A stretch of DNA of 64,000 bases from Thermoleophilia bacterium (lineage in GTDB: Bacteria > Actinomycetota > Thermoleophilia > Gaiellales > F1-60-MAGs149): positions 26,595 through 90,594 of the forward strand of contig JBAXNN010000002.1 of NCBI GenBank assembly GCA_037133755.1. Reading direction: 5' to 3'. Both the position numbers and the translations under genes were made by a program. The notes beneath the pieces were generated by a model. It was not told the origin of the DNA and searched no databases. It saw only the letters and a list, made by a program, of their open reading frames with translations. This document shows, one piece after another, positions 46,578 to 63,800 of this stretch; the first letter of the stretch is position 1; each line of letters opens with the position of its first letter.

Positions 46578-48035
46578 CTACGAGACCGTGCCGTCCAGGA
46601 TCTGGAGCGTCTTCAGGTCCGAGTAGAAGTCGAGCGCGAAGTCGCCGCCCTCACGGCCGATGCCGCTGATGCCCGCGCCGCCGAAGGGGGCGGTGAGATC
46701 ACGCACCAGGAAGCAGTTGACCCAAAAGGTGCCAGCGCGCACGGTGCGGCCGATGCGGTCAGCACGCTCGGCGTCGGAGGTGAAGAGGATGCCGGACAGG
46801 CCGTACTCGGTCGAGTTGGCGAGCGCGACGGCTTCCTCCTCGGTCGTGAACGTCTGGATCGTCAGGACGGGACCGAACACCTCGTTTTGGACGATCTCAC
46901 TGTCGTTGGACTTCGGGCGGATCAGCGTCTGCTCGTACCAGTTGCCGCCGAGCTCCGACACCTTGCCGCCACGCAGTACCTCGTCACCGTTCGCGCGAGC
47001 GCGGTCGACGAAGCCGGCGACGCGCGCCAGATGGTCGGGGTGGATCAGCGGGCTGATCGTCGTGGCGTCGTCGTGGGGATCGCCGAGCACCTGCGCATCG
47101 ACGTTCGCGTTGAAGCGCGCGAGAAAGTCGTCGACTACCGACTCCTCAATGAGCAGACGCGTGCCCGACAGGCAGACCTGGCCGGCGTCGTCGTACTGCA
47201 GCGCAGCCTTGGCCGCCGCGGCGTCAAGATCGGCGTCGGCGAAGACAATGAAGGGGTTCTTGCCACCGAGCTCGGCGGTGAAGGGCACGATGTTCTCCGC
47301 GCCGGCGCGGCCAATGTGGCGCGCGGTCTCGGGCGAGCCGGTGAAGCTGAGGCGCCGGACGCGACGATCGGTCGTGAGTGCCACACCGACTTCCTCGCCG
47401 ATGCCCTGCACGAGGTTGAAGACGCCGGGCGGGAAGCCCGCCTTGTCCACGAGGTCGAAGAGCATGGAGCACGACAGCGGCGACCACTCGGCGGGCTTGA
47501 GCACCACGGTGCAGCCGGCGGCGAGCGCCGGTGCGCACTTCCACGTGGAGAGCATGAACGGCGCATTCCACGGGGTGATCACGACGGCTGGTCCGCTCGG
47601 GTTGCGCACGACGCGGTTGGCCGTGCCGTTCGACTCCCAGACGCGCTCGCTGTACTCGCAGGCGAGGTCGGCGTAGGCGCGGAAGTTGCGGGCCCCGCGG
47701 CCAATCACGCGGGCCTTGAGCGAGCGCTCGAGCATGGCCATGTCCCAGCACTCGACCTCGGCGATGTGGTCGACGTGCTCATCGATCAGGTCGGCCAGGC
47801 GGTGCAGATACGGGGCACGCCCCTCGGGACCGAGCGCGGCCCAGGCGGGGAAGGCGCGGACGGCGGCGCTGATCGCGGCATCGGCGGTGGCGGCATCGCC
47901 GCGACACACCTCGGCCAGCAGCGAGCCGTCGATCGGCGACCGGTCTTCGAACGTCGCGGCACTGCCAACACGGGCGCCATCGATGTAGTGCTCGGGCGAG
48001 ACGGTGTGGCCGTGGACGTCGACGCGGTTGCTCAC
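46578..48035 (-). CDS. NAD(P)-dependent aldehyde dehydrogenase (ring-fission semialdehyde dehydrogenase-like)
   Basis: The GTG start at 48035 overlaps the upstream stop as GTGA. It contains ITPWNAPFMLSTWK, ELGGKNP and GQVCLSGTR (the catalytic Cys context). It resembles the HpaE/XylG class. Confidence 0.85.
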   Translation of the reverse strand: MSNRVDVHGHTVSPEHYIDGARVGSAATFEDRSPIDGSLLAEVCRGDAATADAAISAAVRAFPAWAALGPEGRAPYLHRLADLIDEHVDHIAEVECWDMAMLERSLKARVIGRGARNFRAYADLACEYSERVWESNGTANRVVRNPSGPAVVITPWNAPFMLSTWKCAPALAAGCTVVLKPAEWSPLSCSMLFDLVDKAGFPPGVFNLVQGIGEEVGVALTTDRRVRRLSFTGSPETARHIGRAGAENIVPFTAELGGKNPFIVFADADLDAAAAKAALQYDDAGQVCLSGTRLLIEESVVDDFLARFNANVDAQVLGDPHDDATTISPLIHPDHLARVAGFVDRARANGDEVLRGGKVSELGGNWYEQTLIRPKSNDSEIVQNEVFGPVLTIQTFTTEEEAVALANSTEYGLSGILFTSDAERADRIGRTVRAGTFWVNCFLVRDLTAPFGGAGISGIGREGGDFALDFYSDLKTLQILDGTVS

Positions 48036-48841
48036 GCGTCGCCTCGCAGGTCGGTGATGGTCTCGAGGTCGTTCACCGAGTACGCGAATGTGAAGCGATA
48101 GCCCTTGCCGACCTTGACCGGCGCGAGCGCGATGTGCTCCTCGTTGGGGGCATCGCCGAACGACAGCGTGGCGTCGCCCTCCCAGATCGCGGAGATCGAG
48201 CGATCGTACGACTTGGCGCGCACGAGCTCGTGCACGGCGGGCGTCTCGTGCGTGCCCTCGGCCAGCTGCGGAAAGTGGCGGCGATTGACCAGCGGCGGCG
48301 CGTTGTGCTCGGGGCCGCCGGCGCTCTCGCCCGTCAGCTTGACGGTGGCTTCGATCAGACGGCGATCGTTTGCGGCCATCGTGCACCCAAACGTCGAGCC
48401 AGCGGCGATCGCCGGGTCGGCGAGCGTGCCGAGGCCGAAGGTGCGCGTCATCCAGACCGAGCCGAGCTTCTTCGGGAAGCCCTGGATCCAGCCGCGCACG
48501 AGCGCGAAGTCGCGATCAACCCAGATGTAGGGGCACGTCGTGACGTGCTCGTCGCCGAGCATGCCGTTGACGACGATGAACGCCTCCTTGTACTGGCTGC
48601 GCGCCGGATCGATCAGCTCGTTCTGGTCGGTCACGCAGGACTGCCAGTCGGCGAAGATCACCGCGGCACGGCCCGGATCGGCCGCGTACGGCTCGATGCC
48701 GGGCGGCAGCACCGCCGCGACGGCTGCCGGGTCGGCCCAGTAGTCCACAACGACGAAGTCGCCGACGTAGTGCCACGGGGGCGACGGCACCAGGCTCGCG
48801 CTGCCGGTGGGGGATAGGGGGAGGCTGTAGCCCTTGCTCAT
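48032..48841 (-). CDS. Acetoacetate decarboxylase (ADC)-family protein
   Basis: 269 aa with PPWHYVGDF and VRGWIQGFPKKLG. The latter aligns with the Schiff-base lysine region (YPKKLG) of clostridial Adc. Confidence 0.65.
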   Translation of the reverse strand: MSKGYSLPLSPTGSASLVPSPPWHYVGDFVVVDYWADPAAVAAVLPPGIEPYAADPGRAAVIFADWQSCVTDQNELIDPARSQYKEAFIVVNGMLGDEHVTTCPYIWVDRDFALVRGWIQGFPKKLGSVWMTRTFGLGTLADPAIAAGSTFGCTMAANDRRLIEATVKLTGESAGGPEHNAPPLVNRRHFPQLAEGTHETPAVHELVRAKSYDRSISAIWEGDATLSFGDAPNEEHIALAPVKVGKGYRFTFAYSVNDLETITDLRGDA

Positions 48842-48857
48842 GTGATCTCCTCGCGGC

Positions 48858-50162
48858 TCAGACGTGATCCGCGTACTCGGTCCATTCCCATTCGGTGACG
48901 ACGCGGGCGAAGCGGTGCAGCTCGCGCCGCTTCACGTCGACGACGGTGCGCACCATGCGCTCGCCGAGCGCATCGGCGATGATCGTGTCGGCCTCGAGCG
49001 CGTCGAGTGCTGCCCCGAGATCCTGCGGTAGCGCGACCGGGTCGCCGATCGCCAGTCCGCGCTCGATGCCATCGCGGCCGGCAGCCAGCGCGGCGGTGAG
49101 CAACAGGTACGGGTTCGCAGAGGCATCGCCGATGCGCAGCTCGACGCGCGTGGCGTCGCCGTTCTGCGGCGGCACACGCAGGTACGCGGTGCGGTCATCG
49201 CCGCCCATGTCGGCCTGCAGCGGCGCGAGCCCGATGTTGGCGTTGGCGAGGCGCTTGAACGAGTTGATCGTGGGGCACGCGAGTGCCGTCAGCGCCTGCG
49301 CGTGCACGATCAGGCCGGCGGCGAAGGCGCGACCGATCTCCGACAGGCCGCCCTCGGGCTGCGCGAAGGCGTTGCCTGCGTCGTTCCAGAGCGAGAGGTG
49401 GATGTGATGGCTCGAGCCCTCAGCGTCGGCGAACGGCTTGCCCATGAAGTTCGCTCGTAGTCCGTTGCGTCCCGCGGTCTCGCGGACGACCTCCTCGAAG
49501 AGGAAGACGCGGTCCGTCGCATCGAGTGCCTCGCCGTGGTTGAGGTTCAGCTCGAACTGGCCGGGCGAGACCTCGCGATGCGCGGCCGTGACGCCGAGGC
49601 CCATGGCCACGCAGGCGTCCTGCGTGGCACGGAGCACACCGTTGGGGTCGGCCGCCCAACCGGAGGTGTAGGCCAGACCGACGCCGGGCGAGTAGCGCCC
49701 GACGGACGGTCCCGAGCCCGGCTCGAGCAGATAGAACTCGGGCTCCGACGCGGACACCGCGCGATAGCCATGTGCCTGCAATCGTGCGAGCTCGGCCTTC
49801 AGGAGCGAGCGCACGCAGAGACCAGACGGCACGTGGCCGGGGTCCACGACGTCGGCGAGGATCCACGCGGTCTGCGGATCCCACGGCACCTGCCGCGCGG
49901 TGCTGGCGTCGGGCACGGAGTGCGTATCGGGTAGGCCGATGCCGCCGGGATGCGGCGCGTCCATCAGCGGCTCACCGTCGAGGCCCTCGACGAGACTGGC
50001 CTCGCAGTAGCCGATACCGCTCGCGAGCTCGGGCAGCGACGACAGCGGGTAGTCCTTGCTGCGCGGGCGCCCGTGCGGATCCGCGTGGATCACGCGCACG
50101 CGCGTAATGCCCTGCGCAGCCAGCGAGTCGCGCAGGGTGGTGAGTGCGGCGGTGTCGGTCAT
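48858..50162 (-). CDS. Glutamine synthetase-like gamma-glutamyl ligase family protein
   Basis: 434 aa with SEPEFYLLEP, GSSHHIHLSLW, NSFKRL and RVELRIGDASANPYL. Confidence 0.8.
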   Translation of the reverse strand: MTDTAALTTLRDSLAAQGITRVRVIHADPHGRPRSKDYPLSSLPELASGIGYCEASLVEGLDGEPLMDAPHPGGIGLPDTHSVPDASTARQVPWDPQTAWILADVVDPGHVPSGLCVRSLLKAELARLQAHGYRAVSASEPEFYLLEPGSGPSVGRYSPGVGLAYTSGWAADPNGVLRATQDACVAMGLGVTAAHREVSPGQFELNLNHGEALDATDRVFLFEEVVRETAGRNGLRANFMGKPFADAEGSSHHIHLSLWNDAGNAFAQPEGGLSEIGRAFAAGLIVHAQALTALACPTINSFKRLANANIGLAPLQADMGGDDRTAYLRVPPQNGDATRVELRIGDASANPYLLLTAALAAGRDGIERGLAIGDPVALPQDLGAALDALEADTIIADALGERMVRTVVDVKRRELHRFARVVTEWEWTEYADHV

Positions 50163-50165
50163 CGA

Positions 50166-51098
50166 TTAGTCGGCGAGCGGGGGCAGCGGCGTGCCCTGCG
50201 CCTCGAGCTGGTGGCGCTCCGAGTGCACGGCGGCCTCGTCGAAGCGGAAGTACGAGCGCGGCGGCAGGACGCCCCACGTGTTGGATCCCCAGGCGTCGTC
50301 GGCCCACTCGCGGGGCGTGTGCGGGAGGCGCAAGATCTCCATGTCGCAGTAGAGCTCGACGAAGAGGTTCTCCTCGGGGATGCGCACGTAGGCGCAGAGG
50401 TTGCGCGCGAGGTTGTGATGCACGGGACCCCAGCCGAGCCAGCGGCCGTGGCGACCGAGGTGGTCGAGGAACACGCGCAGCTGACCCCAATCAACGATGT
50501 CGAACGCGATGTGGTGGAAGTGCGCCGGGCCCATGCCGACGATCGCCATCTGGTGGTGCTCGGGATGCACGTGCAGCCACACGCCGGCCTCGCCGAGCTT
50601 GTCGGACACGTGCATGCCCATCACGTCGGTGTAGAACGTGGTCGTCTCGGCCAGGTTGGGCGCGAGGATGTTGACGTGGCCGAGGCGGCGCGGGTGCATG
50701 CCGAAGGGCGGTGCGGTCCGGCGTCCGGCGTCGGGCCAGAGCTCGATCGCCGAGCGCTCGCGGAACGGCATCAGCTGCAGGCCGCTGCCGGAGGGGTCGG
50801 CAAACCGCAGCGAGCCGTCGGGCTCCCGGGTGTACGAGACGTTGCAGGCGTCGAGGTGCTTGGCCGCCTCGTCGAGCGAGCAATCCTCGGCGAGCTCCCA
50901 CGCGCTGTGGTCGTGATCGGCCTCGGCGTCCTGCACGAGCTCGAGGCAGTAGTCCTCCGAGTCGCAGCGCAGCAGCGAGCGGCCGGGCTCCTTCGCAACG
51001 ACCTCGAGCCCGAACTGCACCGACCAGCGGGCGGTTGCCTCATCGAGGTCCAGCACGCGCAGACACGCGTGGTGCAGGTCATGGATGCGGATGCTCAT
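50166..51098 (-). CDS. Two-domain VOC-superfamily extradiol ring-cleavage dioxygenase-like protein
   Basis: 310 aa with two glyoxalase-like modules. Candidate metal ligands are in LGHVNI, HFHHIAF and FVELYCD. Confidence 0.7.
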   Translation of the reverse strand: MSIRIHDLHHACLRVLDLDEATARWSVQFGLEVVAKEPGRSLLRCDSEDYCLELVQDAEADHDHSAWELAEDCSLDEAAKHLDACNVSYTREPDGSLRFADPSGSGLQLMPFRERSAIELWPDAGRRTAPPFGMHPRRLGHVNILAPNLAETTTFYTDVMGMHVSDKLGEAGVWLHVHPEHHQMAIVGMGPAHFHHIAFDIVDWGQLRVFLDHLGRHGRWLGWGPVHHNLARNLCAYVRIPEENLFVELYCDMEILRLPHTPREWADDAWGSNTWGVLPPRSYFRFDEAAVHSERHQLEAQGTPLPPLAD

Positions 51099-51099
51099 C

Positions 51100-51957
51100 T
51101 CATACCTCCCCGGCGGCGACGCGCCGTTCGGCTTCGTCCTCGGGAATCGCCAGCGCGACGTGCAGGGTGTTCGCTGAGGTCTCGGGCTGGTCGCCTGGAC
51201 CCGTCAGGTCGACATTCCAGTCGACCACGGTGTTGCGCAGTGCGGGGAAGCCCGCGATCTCGACCTCGACGACGTCGCCGACCTCCATCGGGCGCGAGTT
51301 GGCCGGGGTGCCGGTCAGCACGACGTCGCCCGGCACCAGCGTGATCACGCGGCACAGGTCGGCGAGCTGGTAGCGGTAGTCCCAAATCAGGTCGTCGGCG
51401 TCGCCTTGCTGCACGATCTCGCCGTTGACGCGCGTCGTCAGCGTGAAGCCATCGTCGGGCGTCCACTGGTCGGCGGTGATCATCGCCGGGCCGATCGGCA
51501 GGAAGCCGTCCTGGCCCTTGACGCGCAGCATCGAGCCGCGGTCGGCGTGGCGGAAGTCGTGCAGGCCCACGTCGTTGGCGGGCGCGAAGCCGGCCACGTA
51601 CTTGTGCACGTGCTCGGCCTTCACGCCCTTCATCTCGCGCCCGACGACGACGGCGATCTCGCCCTCGTAGTTGAGGAACTGCGTGCCGTGCGGACGGCGC
51701 AGCTCGCCGAGGTGCCCGTTGAGCGTGGTGGGGGGCTTCATGAAGTAGGACGGCTCAGGCGGCGTGTTGGCCTTGTACTCGGTCAGGCGCGACTGGTAGG
51801 TGAGGTGCACGGCGATGATCTTCGTCGGCTCGACCGGCGCCAGCCAATGCGCGTCCGCGGAAGCGACCTCAGTGCCGTTCTCGAGAAGGACGACACCGTC
51901 GTCCTTCAGCTCGCCCCAATGGGGCTCACCGTTATGGAGGATGCGGACGCGCAGCAT
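51100..51957 (-). CDS. Fumarylacetoacetate hydrolase (FAH)-family isomerase/decarboxylase/hydrolase
   Basis: The start is taken at MLRVRILHNGEPHWGEL. It contains YEGEIAVVVGR, GFAPANDV, KGQDGFLPIGP and GDVVLTGTP. Confidence 0.8.
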   Translation of the reverse strand: MLRVRILHNGEPHWGELKDDGVVLLENGTEVASADAHWLAPVEPTKIIAVHLTYQSRLTEYKANTPPEPSYFMKPPTTLNGHLGELRRPHGTQFLNYEGEIAVVVGREMKGVKAEHVHKYVAGFAPANDVGLHDFRHADRGSMLRVKGQDGFLPIGPAMITADQWTPDDGFTLTTRVNGEIVQQGDADDLIWDYRYQLADLCRVITLVPGDVVLTGTPANSRPMEVGDVVEVEIAGFPALRNTVVDWNVDLTGPGDQPETSANTLHVALAIPEDEAERRVAAGEV

Positions 51958-52082
51958 CAGACTGCCTCGCCGATCGACGTCTTGGTGCTGATGCGGTCCA
52001 TGTGCCCCTCCCGGCCGGACTCCCGGCGCATCCGGGATCCTAGGTCTCCTGCGGCGTGCATACGGAGCAGCGCCGGTAATTC

Positions 52083-52099
52083 TGGATACTGTATCCAAT
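52083..52099. promoter_or_regulatory. Candidate operator TGGATACTGTATCCAAT in the divergent promoter region 51958..52221
   Basis: TGGATAC-T-GTATCCA is a perfect 7+7 inverted repeat. A near-identical 17-mer recurs at 59145..59161. Confidence 0.35.
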
Positions 52100-52221
52100 T
52101 TGACGCGTGATGGGAACCCCGTGCGTCATGCTCCTGCCAGCGGTTCGGAGGGATTCGCGGGAGCGCCGCGAAGGAGCCGCGAGATCCACGCCCTATGGGG
52201 CGCAAGCAAGGGGGAGCACAT

Positions 52222-53661
52222 ATGGGCGCGCAAGCGCAGGGAGGCGAGAAGCTCGGTAAGGGCAATCTCAGCCTGCTCGATGTCATCGCACAGTCGATCG
52301 GGTTCATCGGACCCGTCTTCGCAGCTGCGTTCTTCATTCCGACCATCGTCGGCGCTTCGCTGAACGGCAAGGGCGCCGGACTCGCGAGTCCGGTCTCGAT
52401 CATCATCGCGATGATCGGCATGTGCGCCGTCGCGTGGATCATCTCGCGTTTCGCGCGCCGCATCCATGCCGCCGGCTCGCTGTACGACTACGTCACCGAG
52501 GCGTTCGGCGAGCGCATTGGCTTTGTCGGCGGCTGGGTCTACTACGGCGGCGTGATCGCCCTGACCCTCGCCATTGGTCTGGCGTTCGGCGGCTTCCTGC
52601 ACGACACGCTGTTCTTTAACCACGACATCAACATCGCGTGGTACTGGCTGTCGATTGCCTTCTGGATCGTCGCGGGGCTGATGATGCTGCGGGGCGTGGC
52701 GATCTCGACGCGTGTGCAGCTCGTGCTCGGTCTCGGCTCGTTCCTGATCATCCTGATCTTCTCGATCTGGGTGATCATCAAGGTCGGTGGCGACGGCGGC
52801 CTCAGCGCCCAGCCGTTCAATCCGAGCTCGTCGGATCAGGGCTGGAACGGCATCTTCTTCGGAATTCTCTACGCCGTGATCATGTTCATCGGCTTTGAGT
52901 CCTCCGCGAACCTTGCCGAGGAGACGAGTAACCCACGCAAGCACCTGCCGCTCGCGATCTTCGGCTCGTGCATCGCCGTGGGTGTGTTCTACGTGATCGT
53001 GACGTACGCCCAGGCCGTCGGCTTTGGCCTCTCGGTGCAGGCATGGCTCGAGGCCTTCCCGCCGCTCTACGCGCTGGCCGCCGATCCGAACTACGGCAGC
53101 ACGGGCTTCGGCGAGCTGATCCAGTGGCTCGTCGTGATCGACATCGCGGCCGTCGGTCTCGGTACCGCGACCGGCTCGAGCCGCGGTATCTTCGCCCTCG
53201 CGCGTGACGGTCGTCTGCCGTCCTTCCTTGCGAAGGTGCATCCCAAGTACAAGACGCCATACGTTGCCTCGACCGTCCTCGCGATCGCCTCGATCATCCT
53301 GATCGCGATTGTCGCCTGGACGAACGGCCTGATGAGCGTGGGCGAGATGGATCCGGGCGAGTGGTTCCCGATGTTCAACTGGCTCGCGACCTTCGGTGGC
53401 TTCATGATGATCGCCGTCTACATCGCGATCTGCGTGGCCGCGTTCAAGGGTATGCCTGGCGAGTCGAGCGGTCTGCTCGCCTTGGCCGGCATCGTCGGCG
53501 GTCTCGTCTCGATCGGCGCGATCTACGGCGTGATCGTCCAGTACGCCGACATCCCGGCCTACAACCGCGTGTGGTGGATCGCGGTGCTGTGGCTGGTGGG
53601 TGGCGTGATCATCATGCTGATCCTCAATCAGATGGGCCGTCTGCGCAACAAGACGGTCTAG
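52222..53661 (+). CDS. APC-superfamily amino acid/amine permease
   Basis: About 480 aa, polytopic, with LSLLDVIAQSIGFIGPVF and GFESSANLAEE. I prefer the ATG at 52222, which follows GGGGGAG. An alternative start is at 52195. Confidence 0.8.
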   Translation: MGAQAQGGEKLGKGNLSLLDVIAQSIGFIGPVFAAAFFIPTIVGASLNGKGAGLASPVSIIIAMIGMCAVAWIISRFARRIHAAGSLYDYVTEAFGERIGFVGGWVYYGGVIALTLAIGLAFGGFLHDTLFFNHDINIAWYWLSIAFWIVAGLMMLRGVAISTRVQLVLGLGSFLIILIFSIWVIIKVGGDGGLSAQPFNPSSSDQGWNGIFFGILYAVIMFIGFESSANLAEETSNPRKHLPLAIFGSCIAVGVFYVIVTYAQAVGFGLSVQAWLEAFPPLYALAADPNYGSTGFGELIQWLVVIDIAAVGLGTATGSSRGIFALARDGRLPSFLAKVHPKYKTPYVASTVLAIASIILIAIVAWTNGLMSVGEMDPGEWFPMFNWLATFGGFMMIAVYIAICVAAFKGMPGESSGLLALAGIVGGLVSIGAIYGVIVQYADIPAYNRVWWIAVLWLVGGVIIMLILNQMGRLRNKTV

Positions 53662-53748
53662 CTCGACGCACGCGGAGGGGCCCGGGGCTTCGGCTCCGGG
53701 CCCCTCTTTGCGTTTCGGGGGAGCGGCCTGCAGCGGTACGCTTCCGCC

Positions 53749-54948
53749 GTGGCCATCAACGCCGACCCCGTGATCGACCCGGAACGCCGTCAGCGATTGC
53801 TCGACATCGTCGACGAGATCGGTCCTGCCTTCCTCGAGCGCGCGCCGAAGTACGACCGCGAGGCGTCGTTCCCGTTCGAGAACTTCGACGATCTCTACGA
53901 CGTCGGCTTCTACGGGCTCTGCATCCCGACGCGCTACGGCGGCCTCGGCGCGAGCTTCAACGACTACATGCACATCGGCGCGGCCATCGGTGCCTACTGC
54001 CCGATGACGGCGCTGACCTTCAACATGCACACGCAGACCGTCCTCTGGACGGGCGTCGCGGCCGACGACCTCGACATGAGCGACGAACACCGTGCCGCGC
54101 ACGAGACCCTGCGCGCCGAGCTCTATCGCCGGATCATCGAGGAGAAGGCGCTGCAGTCGCAGCCGCTCAGCGAGGGCATCGCGCAGGGCGCCACGCGCGG
54201 CTTTGCGACGACGGCCGAGAAGGTCGACGGCGGCTACAAGGTCAACGGTCGCAAGATCTTCGCCTCGCTGTCGGGCGCAGCCTCTGACTACAACATCACC
54301 TGCGTCGAGACGAGCGAGGACGAGATCCTCTTCCTCGCGATCGCGGCCGACGATCCGGGCGTCGAGATCGTCGGCGACTGGGATCCGCTCGGCATGCGCG
54401 GCACGGTCTCGCGCACGCTGCTCTTCAAGGACGCCTTCGCGCCGGACGACGCAGTGCTGCTGCCGCCGGGCATCTACAACCAGCTGGCCGAGCGCTGGCC
54501 GTACGTCTACATGACGCTGACGCCTGCCTACATGGGCCTGTCGAAGGCCGTCGTCGATTTCGTGCGCGACTACATGTCCTCGCAGGCGCCTCCCGGTGTC
54601 ACGTCGCGCCGCGAGGTACCCCAGAAGCAACAGGGTTGGGCCGAGCTGCAGATCATGTACGAGAAGAGCCGCGCGCTGTTCGACAAGGTCGTCGACGAGG
54701 CGCGCGTCGATCCGACGCCCGACATGGTGGCGCGCGCGCTGGCCGCGAGCTTCACGACGATGGAGACCGCGCCCGAGCTCGCCTCGTTGGCGATCCGCAC
54801 GTGCGGCGGCCTGTCGATGCTCAAGGAATTCCGGCTCGAGCAGTACTACCGCGATGCCCGCTGCGGCTCGCTGATGCTGCCGTGGAGTGCCGAGGTCTGC
54901 CTGCATCGCCTGGGCCAGCACGGCATCTTCCCCGACGACGCGGCGTAG
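53749..54948 (+). CDS. Acyl-CoA dehydrogenase-fold flavoenzyme (possibly a group-D-like oxygenase)
   Basis: 399 aa with GYKVNGRKIFASL, DPLGMRGT and EQYYRDARCGSLM. It starts at a GTG. Confidence 0.7.
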   Translation: MAINADPVIDPERRQRLLDIVDEIGPAFLERAPKYDREASFPFENFDDLYDVGFYGLCIPTRYGGLGASFNDYMHIGAAIGAYCPMTALTFNMHTQTVLWTGVAADDLDMSDEHRAAHETLRAELYRRIIEEKALQSQPLSEGIAQGATRGFATTAEKVDGGYKVNGRKIFASLSGAASDYNITCVETSEDEILFLAIAADDPGVEIVGDWDPLGMRGTVSRTLLFKDAFAPDDAVLLPPGIYNQLAERWPYVYMTLTPAYMGLSKAVVDFVRDYMSSQAPPGVTSRREVPQKQQGWAELQIMYEKSRALFDKVVDEARVDPTPDMVARALAASFTTMETAPELASLAIRTCGGLSMLKEFRLEQYYRDARCGSLMLPWSAEVCLHRLGQHGIFPDDAA

Positions 54949-54949
54949 T

Positions 54950-55738
54950 GTGATTCGCGACGTCGACGAGGCGCCGATCGCCTGGCGCGAGGCGGGCGAG
55001 GGGCCACTCGTGCTGTTTCTGCACGGCCTCGGTGCGACGCGGACCAGTTGGGACGCCCAGCTCGATGCCCTCGCCGACGGCTACCGCTGCGTGGCGTGGG
55101 ACGTGCCCGGCTACGGGTGCTCCGAGCCGCTTGCCGACTTCTCGCTGGAGGCCGCCGCCGACGCCGCCGCCGCGCTGATCGATCGACTCGGTGGCAGCGC
55201 CCACATCGTCGGGCTCTCGATGGGCGGCATGATCGCGCTGCAGCTCGCGCTCCGGCATCCCGCTGTCGTGCGGTCGCTGGCGATCGTCGACTCGAGCCCG
55301 GCCTTCGGCATGGATGGCACCGACCCGGACGAGTGGCGTGCCGCCCGGCTGGCGCCGCTCGACGCCGGCGCGCAGGTTCCCGACTTCGCCGAGCCCGTGC
55401 TGCGTGGCGTGATGGGTCCGAACGTGTCCGACGAGGCCGTCGCGGCGGCGGTCGCGTCGATGCTGCGCGTCCCGCTCGCCGGACTGCGGCAGACGATCGC
55501 CGCGCTGCCCGGACACGACGTCCGCGCGCGCCTTGGCGACATCGCCGCGCCCACGCTCGTGGTCGTCGGCGAGCTCGACGAGGAGACGCCGCCTGCCTAC
55601 TCCGAGGCGATCGCGGCGGGCATCCCCGGCGCGCGTCTCGAGGTGATCGCCGGAGCCGGGCACTACACGTCGTTCGAGGCGCCCGACGCGCTCAACCGGC
55701 TGCTGCGCGATCATCTCGACATGGTGGAGGCCGCCTGA
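54950..55738 (+). CDS. Alpha/beta hydrolase, NicD (N-formylmaleamate deformylase)-like by context
   Basis: 262 aa with LVLFLHGLG, the nucleophile elbow GLSMGG and GAGHYTSFE. It has an ATGA overlap with the next gene. Confidence 0.65.
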   Translation: MIRDVDEAPIAWREAGEGPLVLFLHGLGATRTSWDAQLDALADGYRCVAWDVPGYGCSEPLADFSLEAAADAAAALIDRLGGSAHIVGLSMGGMIALQLALRHPAVVRSLAIVDSSPAFGMDGTDPDEWRAARLAPLDAGAQVPDFAEPVLRGVMGPNVSDEAVAAAVASMLRVPLAGLRQTIAALPGHDVRARLGDIAAPTLVVVGELDEETPPAYSEAIAAGIPGARLEVIAGAGHYTSFEAPDALNRLLRDHLDMVEAA

Positions 55739-56766
55739 TGGAGCACCGCACGCTCGACGTCTTCCGCCGCGCCCTCGTGGCGAGCGGCCTCACCGCCGGC
55801 GAGGTCGTCGCCGTGCTCAGCGAGTCCGGCAGCCGCGCTGCGCTCGTGGATGCCGCACGGCTCGCCGCCGAGGATCTCGGCGGCCGTGTCGTCGACGTGC
55901 GCATGCCGACGCCTGCCAACCCCGGCCCGGTCGCGATTCGTTCGACCGGCTCGAGCATCGCGCTTCAGGGCAATCCCGCGGCGATCGCCGCGCTCTGCGC
56001 CGCCGACCTCGTGCTCGACTGCACCGTCGAGGGCCTGCTGCACGCGCCCGAGCTGCCCGCCATTCTGAGCGCCGGCTCGCGCGTGCTGATGATCCCCAAC
56101 GAGGATCCCGAGGCCTTCGAGCGTTGGGCGCCGGACGACGGGGCATTGAAGGCACGCGTGCTGGCCGGCCTCGAGCGTCTGCGTGCCGCCGACGCGATGC
56201 ACGTCACCTCGCCGGCCGGCACCGACCTGCGCGTCGCCCTCGCCGGCGCCTTCACGGCCGGCTCGTGGGGCTCGACGGATGGCCCGGGCACGATCGCGCA
56301 CTGGCCGGGCGGCCTCGTCGTCGCGTTCCCCGCCGCGTACTCCGTGGAGGGCACGCTCGTGCTCGCGCCGGGCGATGCGAATCTCACCTTCAAGGAGTAC
56401 CTGCGCGAGCCGGTGCGTCTGACGATCGCGGGCGACCGCATCACGGCGATCGACGGCGACAATCTCGACGCCGATCTGCTGCGCTCGTATCTCGCCGCGT
56501 TCGACGAGGAAGAGGCGTACAGCGTGAGTCACGTCGGCTGGGGCATGAACCCCGCCGCGCGCTGGGATGCTCTCGTGATGGTCGACAAGCGCGAGACCAA
56601 CGGCATCGAGCTGCGCGCCTTCGAGGGGAATTTCCTCTTCTCGACGGGCGCCAACGAGAACGCTGGCCGCTTCACGCGCGGCCACTTCGACTTCCCGATG
56701 CGCCACTGCACCGTGCGCCTCGACGGCGAGACCGTGGTCGATGCCGGCCGCGTTGTCGGCGGCTAG
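55738..56766 (+). CDS. NicX-like (M29 aminopeptidase-fold) 2,5-dihydroxypyridine 5,6-dioxygenase family protein
   Basis: 342 aa. HWPGGLVVAFP...EGTLVL...SHVGWGMNP...RAFEGNFLFSTGANE...HFDFPMRHCTV is colinear with Pseudomonas putida NicX as I recall it. Confidence 0.7.
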   Translation: MEHRTLDVFRRALVASGLTAGEVVAVLSESGSRAALVDAARLAAEDLGGRVVDVRMPTPANPGPVAIRSTGSSIALQGNPAAIAALCAADLVLDCTVEGLLHAPELPAILSAGSRVLMIPNEDPEAFERWAPDDGALKARVLAGLERLRAADAMHVTSPAGTDLRVALAGAFTAGSWGSTDGPGTIAHWPGGLVVAFPAAYSVEGTLVLAPGDANLTFKEYLREPVRLTIAGDRITAIDGDNLDADLLRSYLAAFDEEEAYSVSHVGWGMNPAARWDALVMVDKRETNGIELRAFEGNFLFSTGANENAGRFTRGHFDFPMRHCTVRLDGETVVDAGRVVGG

Positions 56767-57533
56767 CGCGCCTGGAGGATCTCGCGTATCTGCCCGGCGG
56801 TCGCGCCGTGACGCATCAGCCAGGCGTGGGCGCGCCTACGAGCGCCGGCATCGCTGGCCGCCGTGGGGTAGCGGCGGCGCACCTGGCGCTCGAGCTCGTC
56901 CATGTCGGCGGGCGGCTTGGTCTTTTCGGCCTCGCCGGCAACTTCGGAGGCGAGACGCCCGGCGAGCTGCGGGCTGAATCCACGGCGGGCGAGGAACCCG
57001 TAGGCACGTGAGCGGCTGCTCGCCGTACTCGGCCGGGCCTCGAGCAGTCGTCGCGCCTCGGCCTCCTCGTCGAAGTCGGCGTAGGCCTCCTCGACCGCAG
57101 AGGTGATGTCGGCATCGGCGAAGCCCTGCTTGCGCAGGCGCTGTTGCGTCGAGAACGGCGCCTGGCCCGCATCGCGAAAGCGTCGAGCGCGCGTGGCGGC
57201 GAGCACGCGGTCGTTGAGCGCGCCGAGCTCCGCGCAGCGGTCGAGCGTGCGCTCGGCCACCGCTTCGTCGAAGCCCTTGCGCTTGAGGCGGTCGCGCATC
57301 TGCCCGCGCGACGCCATCCGGAAGTCGAGCGACCGGATTGCGTAGCTGAGTGCAGCGGCGGTGTCGCGCTGCTGCTCAAGTCGAGTACGGCGCGCGTCGT
57401 CGAGCTCGCTGCCGAGGTGCAGGTCCTCATCGACGACGAGCGAGGCCGGCAGCGTCGTCCAGTACGCGCCATCGAGATGCACCTTCACGGACGGCTTGCC
57501 GTTGACGGCCGCCAGTCGCGTGATCTTGGACAT
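56763..57533 (-). CDS. recX: RecX-family regulatory protein-like
   Basis: The start is taken at MSKITRLAAVNG. It has repeated three-helix modules (RGQMRDRLKRKGFDEAVAERTLDRCAELGALND, QQRLRKQGFADADI, YGFLARRGFSPQL). Confidence 0.6.
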   Translation of the reverse strand: MSKITRLAAVNGKPSVKVHLDGAYWTTLPASLVVDEDLHLGSELDDARRTRLEQQRDTAAALSYAIRSLDFRMASRGQMRDRLKRKGFDEAVAERTLDRCAELGALNDRVLAATRARRFRDAGQAPFSTQQRLRKQGFADADITSAVEEAYADFDEEAEARRLLEARPSTASSRSRAYGFLARRGFSPQLAGRLASEVAGEAEKTKPPADMDELERQVRRRYPTAASDAGARRRAHAWLMRHGATAGQIREILQAR

Positions 57534-57558
57534 TTTGGGCCCGGCCCCAGAATGACCG

Positions 57559-57596
57559 AAAAAACGACAATTTGGGGCCGGCCCCAAAATGACCGC
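57559..57596 (-). terminator. Candidate intrinsic terminator after the AsnC-like gene
   Basis: The minus strand reads TAG-gcggtca-TTTGGGG-CCGG-CCCCAAA-TTGTCGTTTTTT. This is a GC-rich stem, a 4-nt loop and a U-rich tail. Confidence 0.5.
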
Positions 57597-57875
57597 CTAG
57601 ACGTCGCCGATCTCGAACATCGCGTCGAGATCGTGGCGCGAGTACGCGCGGAAGGCGGGCAGCGTCTCGGTGCGAGCGATGCCGTCGATGGCGAGCAGGC
57701 CGCTCGTGACGAGGTCGGCCATCGCCTCGTTGCTCGAGACGCGCACGATTGCGACGAGGTCGTAGCGGCCGGCGACCGAGTGGACCTCGGCGACGCCGTC
57801 GGTGGTGGCGAGACGGTCGGCGACCTCAGCGAGGCGGCCGCGCTCGACGTCGATCAGGACGAATGCAGTGACCAT
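57597..57875 (-). CDS. Stand-alone Lrp/AsnC-type ligand-binding (RAM) domain protein
   Basis: 92 aa. MVTAFVLIDVERGRLAEVADRLATTDGVAEVHSVAGRYDLVAIVRV is a typical AsnC C-terminal domain. There is no HTH. Confidence 0.7.
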   Translation of the reverse strand: MVTAFVLIDVERGRLAEVADRLATTDGVAEVHSVAGRYDLVAIVRVSSNEAMADLVTSGLLAIDGIARTETLPAFRAYSRHDLDAMFEIGDV

Positions 57876-57885
57876 GAGGTGGAGT

Positions 57886-59073
57886 CTAGTCCTCGTCCCA
57901 CAACTCGGACTTGATCATGTCCCACGCCTCGCCGGGATCGCCGGGCATGGCGGGGATGTAGCGCGCGCCCTCGTGCGGCGTGGACGGCGGCGTCCACGAG
58001 CCGCGCTTCTGCAGCCGCTTGATGTTGGCGCGGTAGACCTCGTCGACCTCGGCGTGCGAGCCCGGCTCGTCCTTCAGCCAGAGGTTCTTCGGATGGATCG
58101 GCTCGTCGTACATGTCCTTGAAGAGCTCGGTGCGGAGGTCCTTCATCCAGTTCGAGTTGAGGTTCATCGCGCGGAAGTTGCGCAACGCCTCGATGTCGAT
58201 GATGCCGGCGCAGAAGCTGTTCATGCCGCTCTGCGACAGCCCGAGCACCTGGCCCTGGAAGTCGATGATGTGGCCGTTGCCGCCACCGATGTCGTACGGC
58301 TGCTCCATCTTCGGATGCACGTAGACGGGGCCGACGTTCGGGCAGACCATGTACAGCGAGTTGAAGTGCGCGTGCGCGCGGTTCTGCAGCAGCCACGTGC
58401 CGCCGGCGTCGGGACCGGCCTGGGTCATCGGCACGGCTTCGCTCGGGCGGTAGACGACCTCGGCGCCGTTGAAGGCGAGCGCGCGGACGGCCTCGGGGTA
58501 CTCGCCGTCGGAGCAGCAGATCGTGCCGATGTTGCCGATGTCCTTCGTCTTGAGCACGGGGTAGAACGCGTCGAGCCCCTCGCCGAACACCTCGATCCAG
58601 CGGTCGTAGACGTCGTGCGGGGTGGTCGAGCGCTCGCGGCACCAGAGGTGGTTCTTCGCGGCCTTGTGCACGATCTTCCCGTTCGGGCCGATCACGAACA
58701 GCATGTTGAAGAAGCGGTCGTCCATCACCTCGGGCAGCCGCGCCTTGCACTGGACGACGATGTACGTGCCGTACTGCTTGGCGAGCTTGCCGAGCCGCTG
58801 CGTCTCCGGGCCGGGCAGGTCGATGAACAGCTCGCGGGCGGCGACGGTGTGGGGGATGTCGAAGATCTCGTCGGTGAAGCCCGTCAGCGCGCCTTCGGCG
58901 AGCGCGATCAGCCGGACGGGCATGTTGATGCCGATGATCGAGACGGCGGCGTGGATCGCGTCCTCGATGACGTCGAGGTTGCGCTCGATCTCGCTGCGCT
59001 TGGAGATGCCGCGCACCACCGTCGAGAGTCCCACTGCCATGTAGGGCGCTACGGGCCCTGTCTGCTTCGCCAT
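57886..59073 (-). CDS. Carbon-nitrogen hydrolase (nitrilase superfamily) amidase-like protein
   Basis: The start is taken at MAKQTGPVAPYMAVGLS. The candidate Glu-Lys-Cys triad contexts are LIALAEGAL, VHKAAKNHLW and TICCSDGEYPE. Confidence 0.75.
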   Translation of the reverse strand: MAKQTGPVAPYMAVGLSTVVRGISKRSEIERNLDVIEDAIHAAVSIIGINMPVRLIALAEGALTGFTDEIFDIPHTVAARELFIDLPGPETQRLGKLAKQYGTYIVVQCKARLPEVMDDRFFNMLFVIGPNGKIVHKAAKNHLWCRERSTTPHDVYDRWIEVFGEGLDAFYPVLKTKDIGNIGTICCSDGEYPEAVRALAFNGAEVVYRPSEAVPMTQAGPDAGGTWLLQNRAHAHFNSLYMVCPNVGPVYVHPKMEQPYDIGGGNGHIIDFQGQVLGLSQSGMNSFCAGIIDIEALRNFRAMNLNSNWMKDLRTELFKDMYDEPIHPKNLWLKDEPGSHAEVDEVYRANIKRLQKRGSWTPPSTPHEGARYIPAMPGDPGEAWDMIKSELWDED

Positions 59074-59144
59074 GTTCGGCCTCCTGTGGGGTGCAAGCGT
59101 ACGCGAATGACGGGGGGTGCCTCTTGACACCTTCGGAGAACGAT

Positions 59145-59161
59145 TGGATACTGGATCCAAT
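59145..59161. promoter_or_regulatory. Candidate operator TGGATACTGGATCCAAT in the divergent promoter region 59074..59183
   Basis: It matches the 52083..52099 motif at 16 of 17 positions. It extends to the palindrome ATTGGAT-actgg-ATCCAAT. A TTGACA-like hexamer lies at 59124. Confidence 0.35.
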
Positions 59162-59183: not shown

Positions 59184-60650
59184 ATGGCTGCAACCGAGAC
59201 TAGTTCCAACGTGGCGGCGCGCACCGGCGCCGAATTCCTCGAGGGTCTGCGCAACGACAAGGATCGCGAGATCTGGATCGGCGGCGAGTGCGTCACGAAC
59301 CCGATGGATCACGAGTTCCTGGCCACGGGTGCCGAGGCGATCGCGCGCGTCTTCGACACGCAGCACGAGCACGCCGAGGTCTGCCTCGCGCCGAATCCCG
59401 ATGACGGCCGCCTCGTCAACCGCACGCACCTGATCCCGCGCAGCAAGGACGATCTCGAGAAGCGCCGTGCGTCGATGGAGATCATCGCGGGCGCGACGGG
59501 CGGGATGATGGGCCGCGTCCCCGACTACCTCAACGTGACGTTCGCCTGCTTCGCCGGAGCGTCGGAGGTGTGGGCGCGCCGCGGCAACGAGCGCGGCGCG
59601 GAGAACATCGTCAACTACCAGAAGCTGATGCGCGATCGGGATCTCTCGACGACGCACGCGATCATGAATCCCGTCGCTGACCGCTCGAAGTCGGATGCCC
59701 AGCAGATGGGCGGCGAGATCTCCCTGCACAAGGTTGGCGAGTGCGCGGAGGGCATCATCGTCCGTGGCGCGCGCATGCTCGCGACCCTCGCGCCGTTCGC
59801 CGACGAGATCTCGGTCTATCCCGGCTCGCCCCTGCAGGAGGGTGACGAGGCCTACGCGCTTGCGTTCGCGCTGCCGATGTCGACGCCGGGCCTGCGGTTC
59901 ATCTGCCGCGATTCGTTCGCGAAGCCGAAGAGCACCTTCGACTACCCGTTGAGCGCGCGCTTTGACGAGATGGACGCCGTCGTGATCTTCGACGACGTCG
60001 TCGTGCCCTGGGATCGCCTCTTCCTCGACGGCGATCTCGAGGGTTACGACGAGGTCATCACCGACTCCGGCTGGCGTGGCCACATCATGCACCAGGCCTT
60101 CACCCGGTCCTACGTGAAGCTGATGTTCGCGTTCGGGCTCGGCCACGCGATGGCGCAGACCACGGGCGTGGCGCGCTTCGACCACATCCAGGAGAAGCTC
60201 GGCCAGATCTGGAACATGACCGAGCTCACGCGCTCGGCGCTCGTTGCCGCGGAGGCCGATTCGTTCCTCGACAACCACGGCGTCTGGTATCCGCATGATC
60301 GCCCGCTGATGGCGCTGCGCGGCGAGATGCCGAAGTGGCTGCCCCGTACGCACGAGCTGCTGCAGCTGATCGGCGGCGGGTCGTTCATGGCGACCCCGTC
60401 CGAGGCCGACTTCAACTCGGCGATCCGCGGCGACATCGAGAAGTACTTCCAGGCCGCCGGTGGCAACGCCGAGCAGCGTGTACGCATCTTCCGTCTCGCG
60501 TGGGACTTCATCGGCTCCGACCTCGGCGGGCGCAGCGAGCTCTACGAGCGCTTCTACCTGTCGGACTCGTGGCGGATGACGCAGCTGGCCTACCGCACGG
60601 CGGACACCACGTTCGCCGAGTCGCTGGTCGACCAGTTCATGCACGACTAA
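59184..60650 (+). CDS. HpaB-family (4-hydroxyphenylacetate 3-monooxygenase-like) flavin-dependent oxygenase component
   Basis: The start is at MAATETSSNVAARTGAEFLEGLRND, preceded by GGAGGA. It is 488 aa with GGMMGRVPDYLN and NPVADRSK. The length and N-terminus are typical of the HpaB family. Confidence 0.8.
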   Translation: MAATETSSNVAARTGAEFLEGLRNDKDREIWIGGECVTNPMDHEFLATGAEAIARVFDTQHEHAEVCLAPNPDDGRLVNRTHLIPRSKDDLEKRRASMEIIAGATGGMMGRVPDYLNVTFACFAGASEVWARRGNERGAENIVNYQKLMRDRDLSTTHAIMNPVADRSKSDAQQMGGEISLHKVGECAEGIIVRGARMLATLAPFADEISVYPGSPLQEGDEAYALAFALPMSTPGLRFICRDSFAKPKSTFDYPLSARFDEMDAVVIFDDVVVPWDRLFLDGDLEGYDEVITDSGWRGHIMHQAFTRSYVKLMFAFGLGHAMAQTTGVARFDHIQEKLGQIWNMTELTRSALVAAEADSFLDNHGVWYPHDRPLMALRGEMPKWLPRTHELLQLIGGGSFMATPSEADFNSAIRGDIEKYFQAAGGNAEQRVRIFRLAWDFIGSDLGGRSELYERFYLSDSWRMTQLAYRTADTTFAESLVDQFMHD

Positions 60651-60833: not shown

Positions 60834-63800
60834 GTGAACCCGAATCGCCGTTCGATCTTCCTTCGTAGCGGTGTGGCGGCGACGGCGCTGGTGGGCGCGG
60901 CCTTCATTGCGGGTCCGGCTGCTGCGGCTGAGCAGGGAGCAGCGGTCGACGCGTCGACGTCGCGCGTGGCGCGTGCCACGGGCGAGGTGCCTCAGACGCT
61001 GCCCGACTTCCGTGCGCTGATCTCGAGCGAGGCCGGCTGTGTCGCCAACGCCGAGTACATGGCCCGTCACCTGCAGTGGTCGGTCAACAGTCCGCGTGTC
61101 AGCCAGAGCACGGTCGTGCGCGTGATCGCGCGTATCAAGCGGGCGTCGGCGCCGTGCAACAACTTGCTGTTTCGCAACGGCAATCGGGTGCATCCCGATG
61201 CCGGCATCCTGACGGGCAACGGCTTCAGCTTCAAGGCAGCCACCTGCACTGGCGCCGAGGCATGCGACGGCGGTAACGGCGGCCTGCTGATGGGTTCCGG
61301 TGGCAACGGCGCCAACGGCGGTGACGGCGGCGACGCCGGCTGGTACAGCGGTCGTGCCGGCAACGGCGGCGACGCGGTTGTGGCAGGCCAAGACGGCGGC
61401 GACGGCGGCCGCGCCGGTCGCGTCGGCGCGGGCGGCAATGGCGGCGCTGGCCTGGAGAGCGGCGACGGCGGCAATGGCGGCAGGGGCGGCCTCCTGAGCG
61501 GCAACGGCGGCAATGGCGGTAACGGCGGCAGCGCGACGACGGCGGGCCAGGCTGGTGGCGATGGCGGCGCCGGTGGTCGTGCCGTGGCGAAGAAGGGCGT
61601 CGGCGGCCGCGGCGGGGCAGGCGGGGCAGGCGCGGCAGGCGCCGCGGGGGCGACCGGCACAACCGGGTCCGGTGTCGGGGTCGCTGGCGGAACCGGTGGC
61701 AACGGCGGTAACGGTGGCAGCGGTGGCAACGGTGGTGCTGGCGGCAGTGCACCCAAGGGAGTCGCAGGCAACGGCGGCGCCGGCGGTGCTGCGGGCAACG
61801 CAGGCAACGGCGGTGCAGGCGGTGCGGGCTACGACGGCGTCACAGCCGGCGAGAACGGCTCGAGCGGCGGCACGGGCGGCCTGTCCGGCACGCCGGGCGC
61901 AGCGGGCAAGGGTGGCGCCGCGGGTGCCGGCGCAGCCGCAGGTTCCGCTGGCGCGGCAGGTGACGCCGCGTCGGTCGCCGTCGCGGGTGCTGGCGGTCGA
62001 GGCGGCAACGGCGCTGGAGCACTTGCCAACGTCGCGGGTGCCAGTGGTGGCAACGGCGGCACAGGTGGTGCCGCCACGGGCAGTGGTCGCGCGGGTGCCG
62101 GCGGCATTGGCGGCAACGGCGGCGCTGGCGGTACCGGCACGGCGGGTACGCTGACGGCAGTAGCCGGTGTCGGCAAGGCCGGCGGTAGCGGTGGCAACGG
62201 CGGTACCGGCGGTGTGGCGGCTACGGGAGTGGCCGGAGCTGGCGGGGTTGGCGGTAACGCAGGCGTAGGTGGTACCGGTGGCGCCGGATTCAACGGCGTT
62301 GGCGCCAATGGCGCCAACGGTGGTGCAGCGGGCGCGGCAGGTAACGGCGGCACCGGAGGAGCGACCACGTCGGGTACCGCCGGCGTTGGCGGTGCCGGCG
62401 GCGACGGCGCACGCGGTGGCAGTGGCGGCCTTGGCAATCTCGGGGGTAACGGCGGCAACGGTGGAGCGGCAGGTGCTGGCGGTGCCGGTGGTTCGGGCGG
62501 CAGTGCGGCCTCCGGAGGCACCAACGGCAACGGCGGCGCAGGCGGCAATGGCGGTGCCGGCGGATCCGGAGCCAACGGCGGCGCCGGTGACCCAATCGCA
62601 GGTGCTACGGCGAACGGTGGCAATGGCGGCAACGGCGGAGCCAGTGCCGCAGCTGGTACGGGAGGTTCCGCTGGTAGCGGTGGTATCGGTGGCGCGAGCG
62701 GCGCCAGTGGTACCGCTGCCACTGCGAGCAACGGCGGCAACGGCGGTGCTGGCTGGGACTCGACTGTCGCGGGCGTGGCGGGCGGCGTGGGTGGTAACGG
62801 CGGTGATGTTGGTAGCGGTGCGGGTGGTAGCGGCGGTAACGGTGGTGCCGGGGGCGCCGGCTTCGTCGGCGTTGACGCAACCGCCTTGGCCGCCGCGTCG
62901 GCGGGTACGAGCGGGGGTAGCGGAGGTGCCGGGGGTGCATCAACGAGCGGCAATGGTGGCGCGGGTGGCGCGGGTGGCGCGGGTGGCGCCGGTGGCGACG
63001 GCCTCGTCGGCGGTGCGCAGGCGCTTGCAAGCGGCGAGGCCGGCGGTACTGGTGGCGCGGGTGGCGCTGGCGGTTCAGTGAGGACAGGGATCGCCGGCAA
63101 TGGCGGCGCGGGCGGAGGAGCCGGCGCAGGCGGCGACACCGCTGTCGGCGCGTCTGGTGTGATCGGACAGGTCGGCGGTCCGGGCCGCAGCGGCGGCGCG
63201 GGCGGCGCTGGTGGAGACGCGACGGGTGGCCGTGCGGGCAACGGCGGCGCTGGCGGTGCTGGAAGCACCGGAGGCGCGGGCGGCGGGTCCAACCTCAGCG
63301 GCAACTCCGGCGGCAACGGCGGTGCCGCGGGTGCCGGCGGGGCCGGCGGTCCTGGCGGAAATGCGGCCGGCACCAACGGAAATGGCGGCAATGGAGGTAG
63401 GGCCGGCAACGGCGGCGCAGGTGGCGCGGGCTTGGCTGGCACGCTTGGCAATGCGGGTACGTCGGGCGGCGCGGGTGGCTCGGCCACTGCTGCCCCCGGC
63501 GCCGCAGGCGCAGCAGGTTCTGGCGCCGGCTCGGCGGGCACTGCGGGCACCGCTGGTGCCTACGGCAATGGTGGCGCGGGCGGCGCTGGCGGCGCTGGCT
63601 TCGTCGGCGTCGATGCCACGAACGCAAGCGCTTCCGTGGCTGGTACCAGCGGTGGCAGTGGCGGTGCCGGCGGCGATGCGACCGGTGGGAACGCGGGTAA
63701 CGGCGGCAACGGTGGCAACGGCGGCAACGGCGGCAACGGCTTTTCGCCCGTGGCCAATCCCGGTGGGTCGAATGGTGGCAGCGCTGGTAGCGGCGGCGCT

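Follow-up and report, generated by a model that had tools for sequence, protein, structure and literature searches.

Operators of the FadR/PdhR type, reportedly treated by Rigali et al. in 2002, have the form TGG-N5-CCA, the VanR repressor of Caulobacter crescentus is GntR-type, and the known regulators of the hpa genes (4-hydroxyphenylacetate/homoprotocatechuate) of E. coli are MarR- and AraC-type and not GntR-type. These systems are among those closest to the element analysed here, a short palindrome present in two copies (site 1 and site 2) in a catabolic gene island within a 64-kb stretch of DNA (the window, G+C content 69%) from a freshwater Gaiellales (Actinomycetota) bacterium. The palindromes are probably the operators of a dimeric repressor of the GntR/FCD family, most likely the one encoded in the same window.

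Three characterised systems allow a direct comparison. Atu1419 of Agrobacterium fabrum (PDB 6Z74) is a VanR-type GntR/FCD repressor of a hydroxycinnamic acid catabolic cluster; it is autoregulated, its operators are identical ATGTATACAT palindromes located over the -10 boxes of several promoter regions, and its effector is a folate derivative (PMC7797058). DipR of Alcaligenes faecalis is a GntR/FadR-family repressor of a dipicolinate cluster comprising six units, whose substrate is the inducer; it is autoregulated, its footprints extend from -35 to +1 with a palindrome in each promoter, and binding was shown experimentally (PMC11472048). VanO of C. crescentus is ATTGGATCCAAT, in which the half-sites ATTGGA and TCCAAT abut, for a total of 12 bp (PMC3300003, PMC5377333).

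The island shares with Atu1419, which is a sequence relative of the GntR protein of the window (E = 7.7e-14), short, nearly identical palindromes, their overlap with a -10 element (at site 2) and an aromatic catabolic cluster as the predicted target. However, the Atu1419 operator is the 10-bp ATGTA-TACAT with converging GTA/TAC, whereas the island dyad covers 15-19 bp and has a TAC-N-GTA core with TGG/CCA arms; moreover, the Atu1419 tetramer loops the DNA between sites that are 109-190 bp from each other, whereas the two sites of the island are 7 kb apart. As in the DipR system, a conserved palindrome is found at several units of one catabolic cluster, here a putative N-heterocycle cluster with predicted binding; DipR differs in being proteobacterial and in the core of its operators (GTATAC/GAATAC instead of TAC-N-GTA). 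The VanO halves, ATTGGA and TCCAAT, recur unchanged as the outer arms of site 2 but stand 7 bp apart there (TACTGGA), and because of this separation and because the inner bases are the best conserved ones the binding geometry must differ; the VanO-type form with abutting half-sites is not present. MoyR of M. tuberculosis was discarded as a comparator because it is HutC-type and binds direct repeats.

A TGG/CCA-armed dyad also recalls the FadR/PdhR operators, which are bound by a winged helix-turn-helix dimer of the same GntR + FCD subfamily, although in the island the arms are TGG-N9-CCA, with a spacing 4 bp longer. The canonical GntR/FadR dyad, (N)yGT(N)xAC(N)y with a GTA-TAC core, is not found either, the core of the island being ATAC-T-GTAT. 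Finally, the enzymes of the island resemble HpaB, HpaD, HpaE and HpaG of hpa regulons, but all their NCBIfam scores are below the equivalog cut-offs. In the literature searches no paper dealt with hpa-like genes under a GntR-type regulator or with gene regulation in Gaiellales, and the core 13-mers brought up nothing but mouse CRISPR papers on unrelated subjects.

Two copies of a conserved palindrome

Site 1 contains a perfect 7-1-7 palindrome, TGGATAC-T-GTATCCA (52083-52097), followed by AT, and its central hexamer is TACTGT in plus-strand and TACAGT in minus-strand orientation. Site 2 can be extended to a 9-1-9 palindrome, ATTGGATAC-T-GGATCCAAT, in which 8 of the 9 arm positions are symmetric. 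The 17-mers of the two sites differ at only 1 of 17 positions. A search of both strands of the window allowing up to three mismatches recovers these two sites only, against 0.03 copies expected by chance in 100 dinucleotide shuffles, none of which reached the observed count; a position weight matrix (PWM) built from related loci also retrieves sites 1 and 2 alone, the next best match being below 8 bits. Beyond the palindrome the two sites are no longer similar, and thus they do not belong to a longer duplicated segment. An earlier note, made by reading the sequence of the window, had placed the two 17-mers at these coordinates and described their near identity and dyad symmetry, the genes flanking each of them (FAH/permease and CN-hydrolase/HpaB-like) and the lack of a third copy, and every one of these statements holds.

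Related loci were collected by scanning one genome per species with the HpaB-like protein of the window, which gave 80 loci (L001-L080; 1.285 Mb) with 67-98% identity to the query, all from metagenome-assembled or single-cell genomes. Nearly all are assigned to Gaiellales, Thermoleophilia or unclassified Actinomycetota, and five carry other, probably mis-binned, labels. Gene order in each locus was reconstructed by tblastn of 15 island proteins. The close relatives (L001-L019, 81-98% identity) have the same layout as the window, and in 19 of 19 an equivalent of site 2 precedes the HpaB start by 22-26 nt. Wherever the sequence of a close relative reaches far enough (L001, L006, L007, L011, L013, L014, L015), another copy separates FAH from the permease or ACAD gene; these are the same loci in which the synteny of the rightward operon is retained.

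Alignments anchored on the genes give a consistent picture. For site 2 (16 sequences) the invariant positions are CTTGAC, the block TGGATA.TG.ATCCAAT, parts of the ribosome-binding site and the start codon, while the 16-17 nt between CTTGAC and the palindrome block vary. For site 1 (8 sequences, 58% mean identity) TGGATA.TGTATCCAA is the sole contiguous invariant block. Footprinting of orthologous intergenic regions, which the earlier note had suggested as a check, therefore finds the motif kept while its flanks diverge.

The motif is also present in the distant loci (L020-L080, 61 loci, 67-72% identity): 46 of the 57 with enough upstream sequence carry a copy (G[GC]ATA[CTA]TGTATCCAATC) less than 200 nt before the first operon gene. 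Over the 1.285 Mb the PWM gives 128 matches of at least 13 bits, 126 of which precede the start of an operon gene, permease, GntR, CN-hydrolase or ACAD gene by no more than 250 nt and none of which falls inside island coding regions; these statistics are partly circular because the sites used for the matrix were chosen by similarity, a circularity from which the gene-anchored alignments are free. The resulting operator consensus is G[GC]ATA-NTG-TAT[CG]CAAT, whose conserved positions mirror each other around the hexamer (G0, A2, T3, A4 versus T8, A9, T10, C12) and are followed by A13, A14 and T15. The mirror positions 1 and 11 (GG..CC versus GC..GC) do not covary cleanly in the related loci. 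Good copies were also observed outside recognised island genes, in L073 (~11254) and L078 (~13751), and may mark further members of the regulon.

In most of the distant loci the genes form one plus-strand operon, FAH-dioxygenase-HpaB-ADC-ALDH (the last encoding an aldehyde dehydrogenase), which often continues with P450, GS-like, flavin reductase and Rieske genes. Because these loci hold the genes as a single operon, the halves of the window's island are pieces of one ancestral operon. On the evidence of gene order, this operon is split in the clade of the window, with the FAH part inverted, HpaB standing alone and the promoter-operator kept by each part. The proposal that the two halves of the island are tied by one cis-element is therefore strengthened, both by the conservation of the two sites and by the distant loci, where genes of both halves follow one motif copy.

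Promoter architecture and the candidate regulator

In 82 of 108 strong sites from the related loci, a TTGAC-like -35 box precedes the central hexamer TA(N)TGT by 16-19 nt, and for this reason the palindrome overlaps the -10 element. In the window this architecture is clearest at the HpaB-like gene, whose predicted promoter (Table 1) has its -10 hexamer GATACT within site 2; the position of this promoter implies a transcript start near 59159 and a leader of about 25 nt with GGAGGA. Compared with the distant loci, the HpaB copy in the window's clade has TACTGG instead of TACTGT as its central hexamer and a -35 box located 2 nt further upstream, and as a consequence GATACT becomes the -10 element. 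Since conservation extends symmetrically beyond the hexamer, a dimeric protein explains the element better than a bare promoter does.

A separate observation concerns translation in the distant loci, where in many cases (L022, L047, L055 and many others) the first operon gene has a GTG start 1-4 nt after CCAATC and 8-11 nt after TACTGT, which suggests that these mRNAs are leaderless or near-leaderless.

The candidate regulator is the protein encoded at 45731-46360. It has an N-terminal GntR winged helix-turn-helix domain (PF00392, 66.6 bits, cut-off 27, residues 13-73) and a C-terminal, all-helical FCD effector/dimerisation domain (PF07729, 84.2 bits, cut-off 24.3, residues 85-202). Its best relatives in the PDB are FCD regulators, and it aligns over its full length to the FCD structures 7xp0, 6z74 and 4p9f (a literature search on structure 7XP0 found no paper). 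No second GntR/FCD protein was found in the window, and no other transcription factor among the 48 window open reading frames (ORFs) scanned with Pfam. GntR is also the only transcription factor among the protein families shared by at least 11 of the 80 loci, the rarer families being mostly unannotated. Orthologues were detected by tblastn in 39 of the 80 loci (46-56% identity), and all 39 contain the motif; in 24 of them it precedes the GntR gene itself by less than 200 nt, in many cases together with a separate TTGAC box. In three more (L047, L050 and L051) the motif stands ahead of an adjacent same-strand pair of permease and GntR genes. In L014 the orthologue is 71% identical and the PNPOx-GntR order is kept.

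Contigs from metagenomes, which were used only for a contrast in GntR adjacency, point in the same direction. Scanning for the exact 16-mer GGATAHTGKATCCAAT gave 120 contigs among the matches listed, of which 100 have a G+C content below 0.6 and are mostly AT-rich chance matches. Of the 20 listed contigs with a G+C content of at least 0.6, 9 encode a GntR/FCD homologue no further than 1.5 kb from the motif, against 3 of the 100 others (Fisher p = 2.7e-6). Where tblastn also detected these homologues they are 29-39% identical to the protein of the window, and in those GntR-adjacent, high-G+C contigs among the matches listed the island genes are absent. One contig among the matches listed (L093) shows the same layout, TTGACA-18-TACAGT.

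The distribution of orthologues, the motif upstream of so many of their genes and the adjacency in unrelated contigs make this protein the best candidate, in agreement with the earlier note. The same note had assigned a possible role as accessory sensor to the AsnC-domain protein, an idea that is not supported: this gene belongs to the close clade only, while the motif and GntR are distributed much more widely. The protein lacks a helix-turn-helix, no full-length Lrp/AsnC partner is present in the window and the motif is far older. The RecX-like protein was likewise rejected as a regulator, its gene being found only in the window, L001, L002, L015 and L017. Since neither gene extends beyond the close clade, the motif is independent of the AsnC-domain and RecX-like proteins.

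Proposed mechanism and alternative explanations

The reading that we favour, and consider likely on the sequence comparisons, is that the palindromes are operators of a dimeric GntR/FCD repressor of the FadR/VanR type, most likely the protein encoded at 45731-46360. Without inducer the repressor would sit on the 15-19 bp dyad, centred over the -10 element of a housekeeping-type promoter, and RNA polymerase would be blocked; the inducer, a substrate or intermediate of the pathway, would bind the FCD domain and release the repressor. The regulon would be an Hpa-like aromatic meta-cleavage pathway, with an HpaB-like hydroxylase, an extradiol dioxygenase, a FAH/HpaG-like enzyme, ALDH and an ADC-like enzyme, and it would also take in genes for uptake and for amine/N-heterocycle handling. 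Most Gaiellales have one operon with one copy of the proposed operator, and the lineage of the window has a split operon with a copy for each part. From the sequence we infer protein binding, repression and the inducer, as well as the control of the FAH, permease and CN-hydrolase units.

Several observations weigh against this reading, and the first group concerns the extent of direct control. The promoter scan found no consensus sigma-70 promoter at site 1; on its minus strand the weak -35-like hexamers TTCCCA and TTCACA, 17 nt from TACAGT, are unconvincing, although TACAGT with such hexamers could give rise to a long FAH leader. For the leftward units, FAH and CN-hydrolase, candidate -10 hexamers of their own lie about 50 nt from the dyad (Table 1). 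The first coincides with a TA[CG]GAT block present in 6 of 8 site 1 sequences (the window, L001, L006, L007, L013, L014), and at the second a CGTACG/CTAG block is partly conserved in the site 2 alignment. If these TANNNT hexamers are real -10 elements, the operator would lie near -60 and direct repression of FAH and CN-hydrolase becomes uncertain. For the permease operon no promoter can be recognised in the window; the permease of distant loci has its own motif copy with its own TTGAC box. Co-control of four transcription units, as the earlier note had put it, survives in part: the shared element is there, but a clear overlap with a -10 element exists at HpaB only, and direct control of all four units does not follow. 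The overlap of operator and -10 element would support direct control of the HpaB unit only; that the four units form a regulon under one regulator is plausible. To these points the partial circularity of the PWM statistics must be added.

Three further objections are those on which the strongest alternative is based, namely that the palindrome is a genuine operator bound by another transcription factor encoded elsewhere, the linked GntR protein regulating something else. In fact, among the 41 loci that lack a GntR gene within 10 kb, 30 nevertheless carry the motif. Moreover, the GntR gene of the window has no upstream site of its own and follows PNPOx after a gap of 22 nt, behind housekeeping genes (glyQS, kinase/pyrophosphorylase, PNPOx), so that it probably rides on an upstream housekeeping transcript. 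Finally, the TAC-N-GTA core is the reverse of the GTA-TAC core bound by characterised FadR/VanR-type proteins. We nevertheless regard this alternative as unlikely, because no competing transcription factor emerged from the families shared by at least 11 loci or from the scanned window ORFs, and because in 24 loci GntR is directly preceded by the motif, which, among the matches listed, is also found beside GntR homologues in unrelated contigs.

The block could also be a promoter only (-10 element, discriminator and start region), possibly of leaderless mRNAs, with no dedicated regulator. The fit of the central hexamer to TANNNT at 16-19 nt from a conserved TTGAC, the start codon 1-4 nt after CCAATC in distant loci and the somewhat better conservation of the right half would agree with this. 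It is very unlikely, though, since the conserved dyad reaches beyond the hexamer by 3-4 nt on the upstream side and 7 nt on the downstream side, which ordinary promoters lose at 30% protein divergence, site 1 has retained its whole palindrome in the absence of a -35 box, and the motif tracks GntR genes in unrelated contexts among the matches listed. Slightly less probable still is that GntR binds the sites as an activator or dual regulator, for example of the divergent FAH and CN-hydrolase promoters from a site near -60: the geometry is alike at both sites, with the leftward -10 candidates 48 and 51 nt from the dyad centre, but repression is implied because the palindrome overlaps the -10 hexamer at most sites, and the characterised FCD regulators compared here (Atu1419, DipR) are repressors. 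That the sites resemble each other by chance, or are left over from a mobile or repetitive element, an idea to which only their short length could lend credit, is effectively refuted by the very low chance expectation (0.03 copies), by the conservation of orthologous positions in dozens of species with diverged flanks and by the lack of an extended repeat around the sites.

With the GntR/FCD repressor as the preferred reading, the regulatory principle is an already known one; the operator form is undescribed and seems to reach beyond Gaiellales. A stronger version, which we consider rather unlikely, is that Gaiellales and other high-GC bacteria share a GntR/FCD clade not yet described, of which the motif would be the founding operator, a 9-1-9 dyad with a central -10 readable as TANNNT on both strands (TACTGT/TACAGT). 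If this were true, one bound dimer could gate promoters in either direction, and the TAC-N-GTA core with TGG-N9-CCA arms would imply a DNA-binding geometry unlike that of the solved FadR and Atu1419 complexes.

The repressor reading offers a testable regulon, with regulator, operator consensus, promoter architecture and target gene set, for Gaiellales, an abundant and almost entirely uncultured actinobacterial order of freshwater and soil. The shared ancestral operon helps to place HpaB-like, ADC/MppR-like, GS-like and NicX-like enzymes in a single pathway, and the island is a clean example of an operon that was split with the promoter-operator retained by each fragment. The regulator/operator pair could also be used as an inducible switch once the effector is known.

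Genes of the catabolic island

All features are collected in Table 1; gene identities are based on Pfam, NCBIfam and PDB comparisons.

Table 1. Operators, promoter elements and genes of the catabolic island (window coordinates)
Feature	Position	Strand	Remarks
Operator site 1	52083-52099	.	TGGATACTGTATCCAAT; between FAH operon (minus) and permease operon (plus)
Operator site 2	59143-59161	.	TGGATACTGGATCCAAT at 59145-59161; between CN-hydrolase operon (minus) and HpaB-like gene (plus)
Predicted HpaB-like promoter	59124-59152	+	-35 TTGACA (59124-59129), 17-nt spacer, -10 GATACT (59147-59152); 10/12 matches, 0.0 expected in shuffles
Candidate -10 of FAH operon, TAGGAT	52037-52042	-	~48 nt from site 1 centre; predicted
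Candidate -10 of CN-hydrolase, TACGCT	59096-59101	-	~51 nt from site 2 centre; predicted
PNPOx	45067-45708	+	
GntR/FCD regulator	45731-46360	+	Pfam GntR + FCD
Leftward catabolic operon	46578-51957	-	five genes, FAH/HpaG-like first
Aldehyde dehydrogenase	46578 to ~48020	-	
ADC/MppR-like	48032-48841	-	
GS-like gamma-glutamyl ligase	48858-50162	-	
Extradiol dioxygenase	50166-51098	-	
FAH/HpaG-like	51100-51957	-	
Rightward operon, permease to NicX homologue	52222-56766	+	
Amino-acid permease	52222-53661	+	
ACAD-fold flavoprotein	53749-54948	+	
Alpha/beta hydrolase	54887-55738	+	Pfam-level identification only
NicX-like 2,5-dihydroxypyridine dioxygenase homologue	55738-56766	+	7cn3, E = 2.7e-62
Leftward operon from site 2, CN-hydrolase to RecX-like	56763-59073	-	
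RecX-like protein	56763-57587	-	
Stand-alone AsnC/RAM-domain protein	57597-57875	-	
CN-hydrolase	57886-59073	-	
HpaB-like flavin-dependent aromatic hydroxylase (oxygenase component)	59184-60650	+	Pfam HpaB_N + HpaB

The Hpa-like enzymes score below their NCBIfam cut-offs as follows: the HpaB-like protein reaches 408 bits with HpaB-1 (cut-off 480), the FAH/HpaG-like protein 196 bits with HpaG-C (cut-off 276) and the extradiol dioxygenase about 90-98 bits with HpaD/catechol 2,3-dioxygenase (cut-off about 320). The NicX homologue matches its structural relative over the full length, yet no Pfam or NCBIfam family is above threshold. This homologue and the alpha/beta hydrolase next to it suggest a maleamate-type N-heterocycle module joined to the Hpa-like aromatic module; no NicF-type isochorismatase was seen among the island genes of the window, where a CN-hydrolase is found instead. 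The RecX-like gene ends the operon of the CN-hydrolase and AsnC-domain genes, is not located beside recA and is below all NCBIfam cut-offs.

Upstream of FAH, a 14-codon ORF (MDRISTKTSIGEAV) with a strong Shine-Dalgarno sequence occupies positions 51957-52001 on the minus strand, and its stop codon overlaps the FAH start (TGATG). The layout recurs in L001, L006 and L013, with unrelated peptides of 10-14 codons, and it may serve translational coupling or encode a leader peptide.

The island is bordered on the left of PNPOx by housekeeping genes (glyQ, glyS, kinase/pyrophosphorylase, RecO, Fpg). A gene for a XerC/XerD-type tyrosine recombinase (36694-37674, plus strand) lies among such genes about 8 kb to the left of the island; despite its presence nothing suggests mobility of the island. 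At 61067-64000 there are long overlapping ORFs in several frames, rich in Pro, Ala and Gly, with high G+C at all three codon positions and no Pfam match.

Downstream of ALDH, several distant loci (L043, L065, L029 and others) carry genes for a P450, a GS-like ligase, a C26 gamma-glutamyl hydrolase, a class-III aminotransferase, a flavin reductase and a Rieske protein. The set recalls pathways in which amines are gamma-glutamylated, the ipu pathway for example, and thereby hints at an aromatic amine as the substrate.

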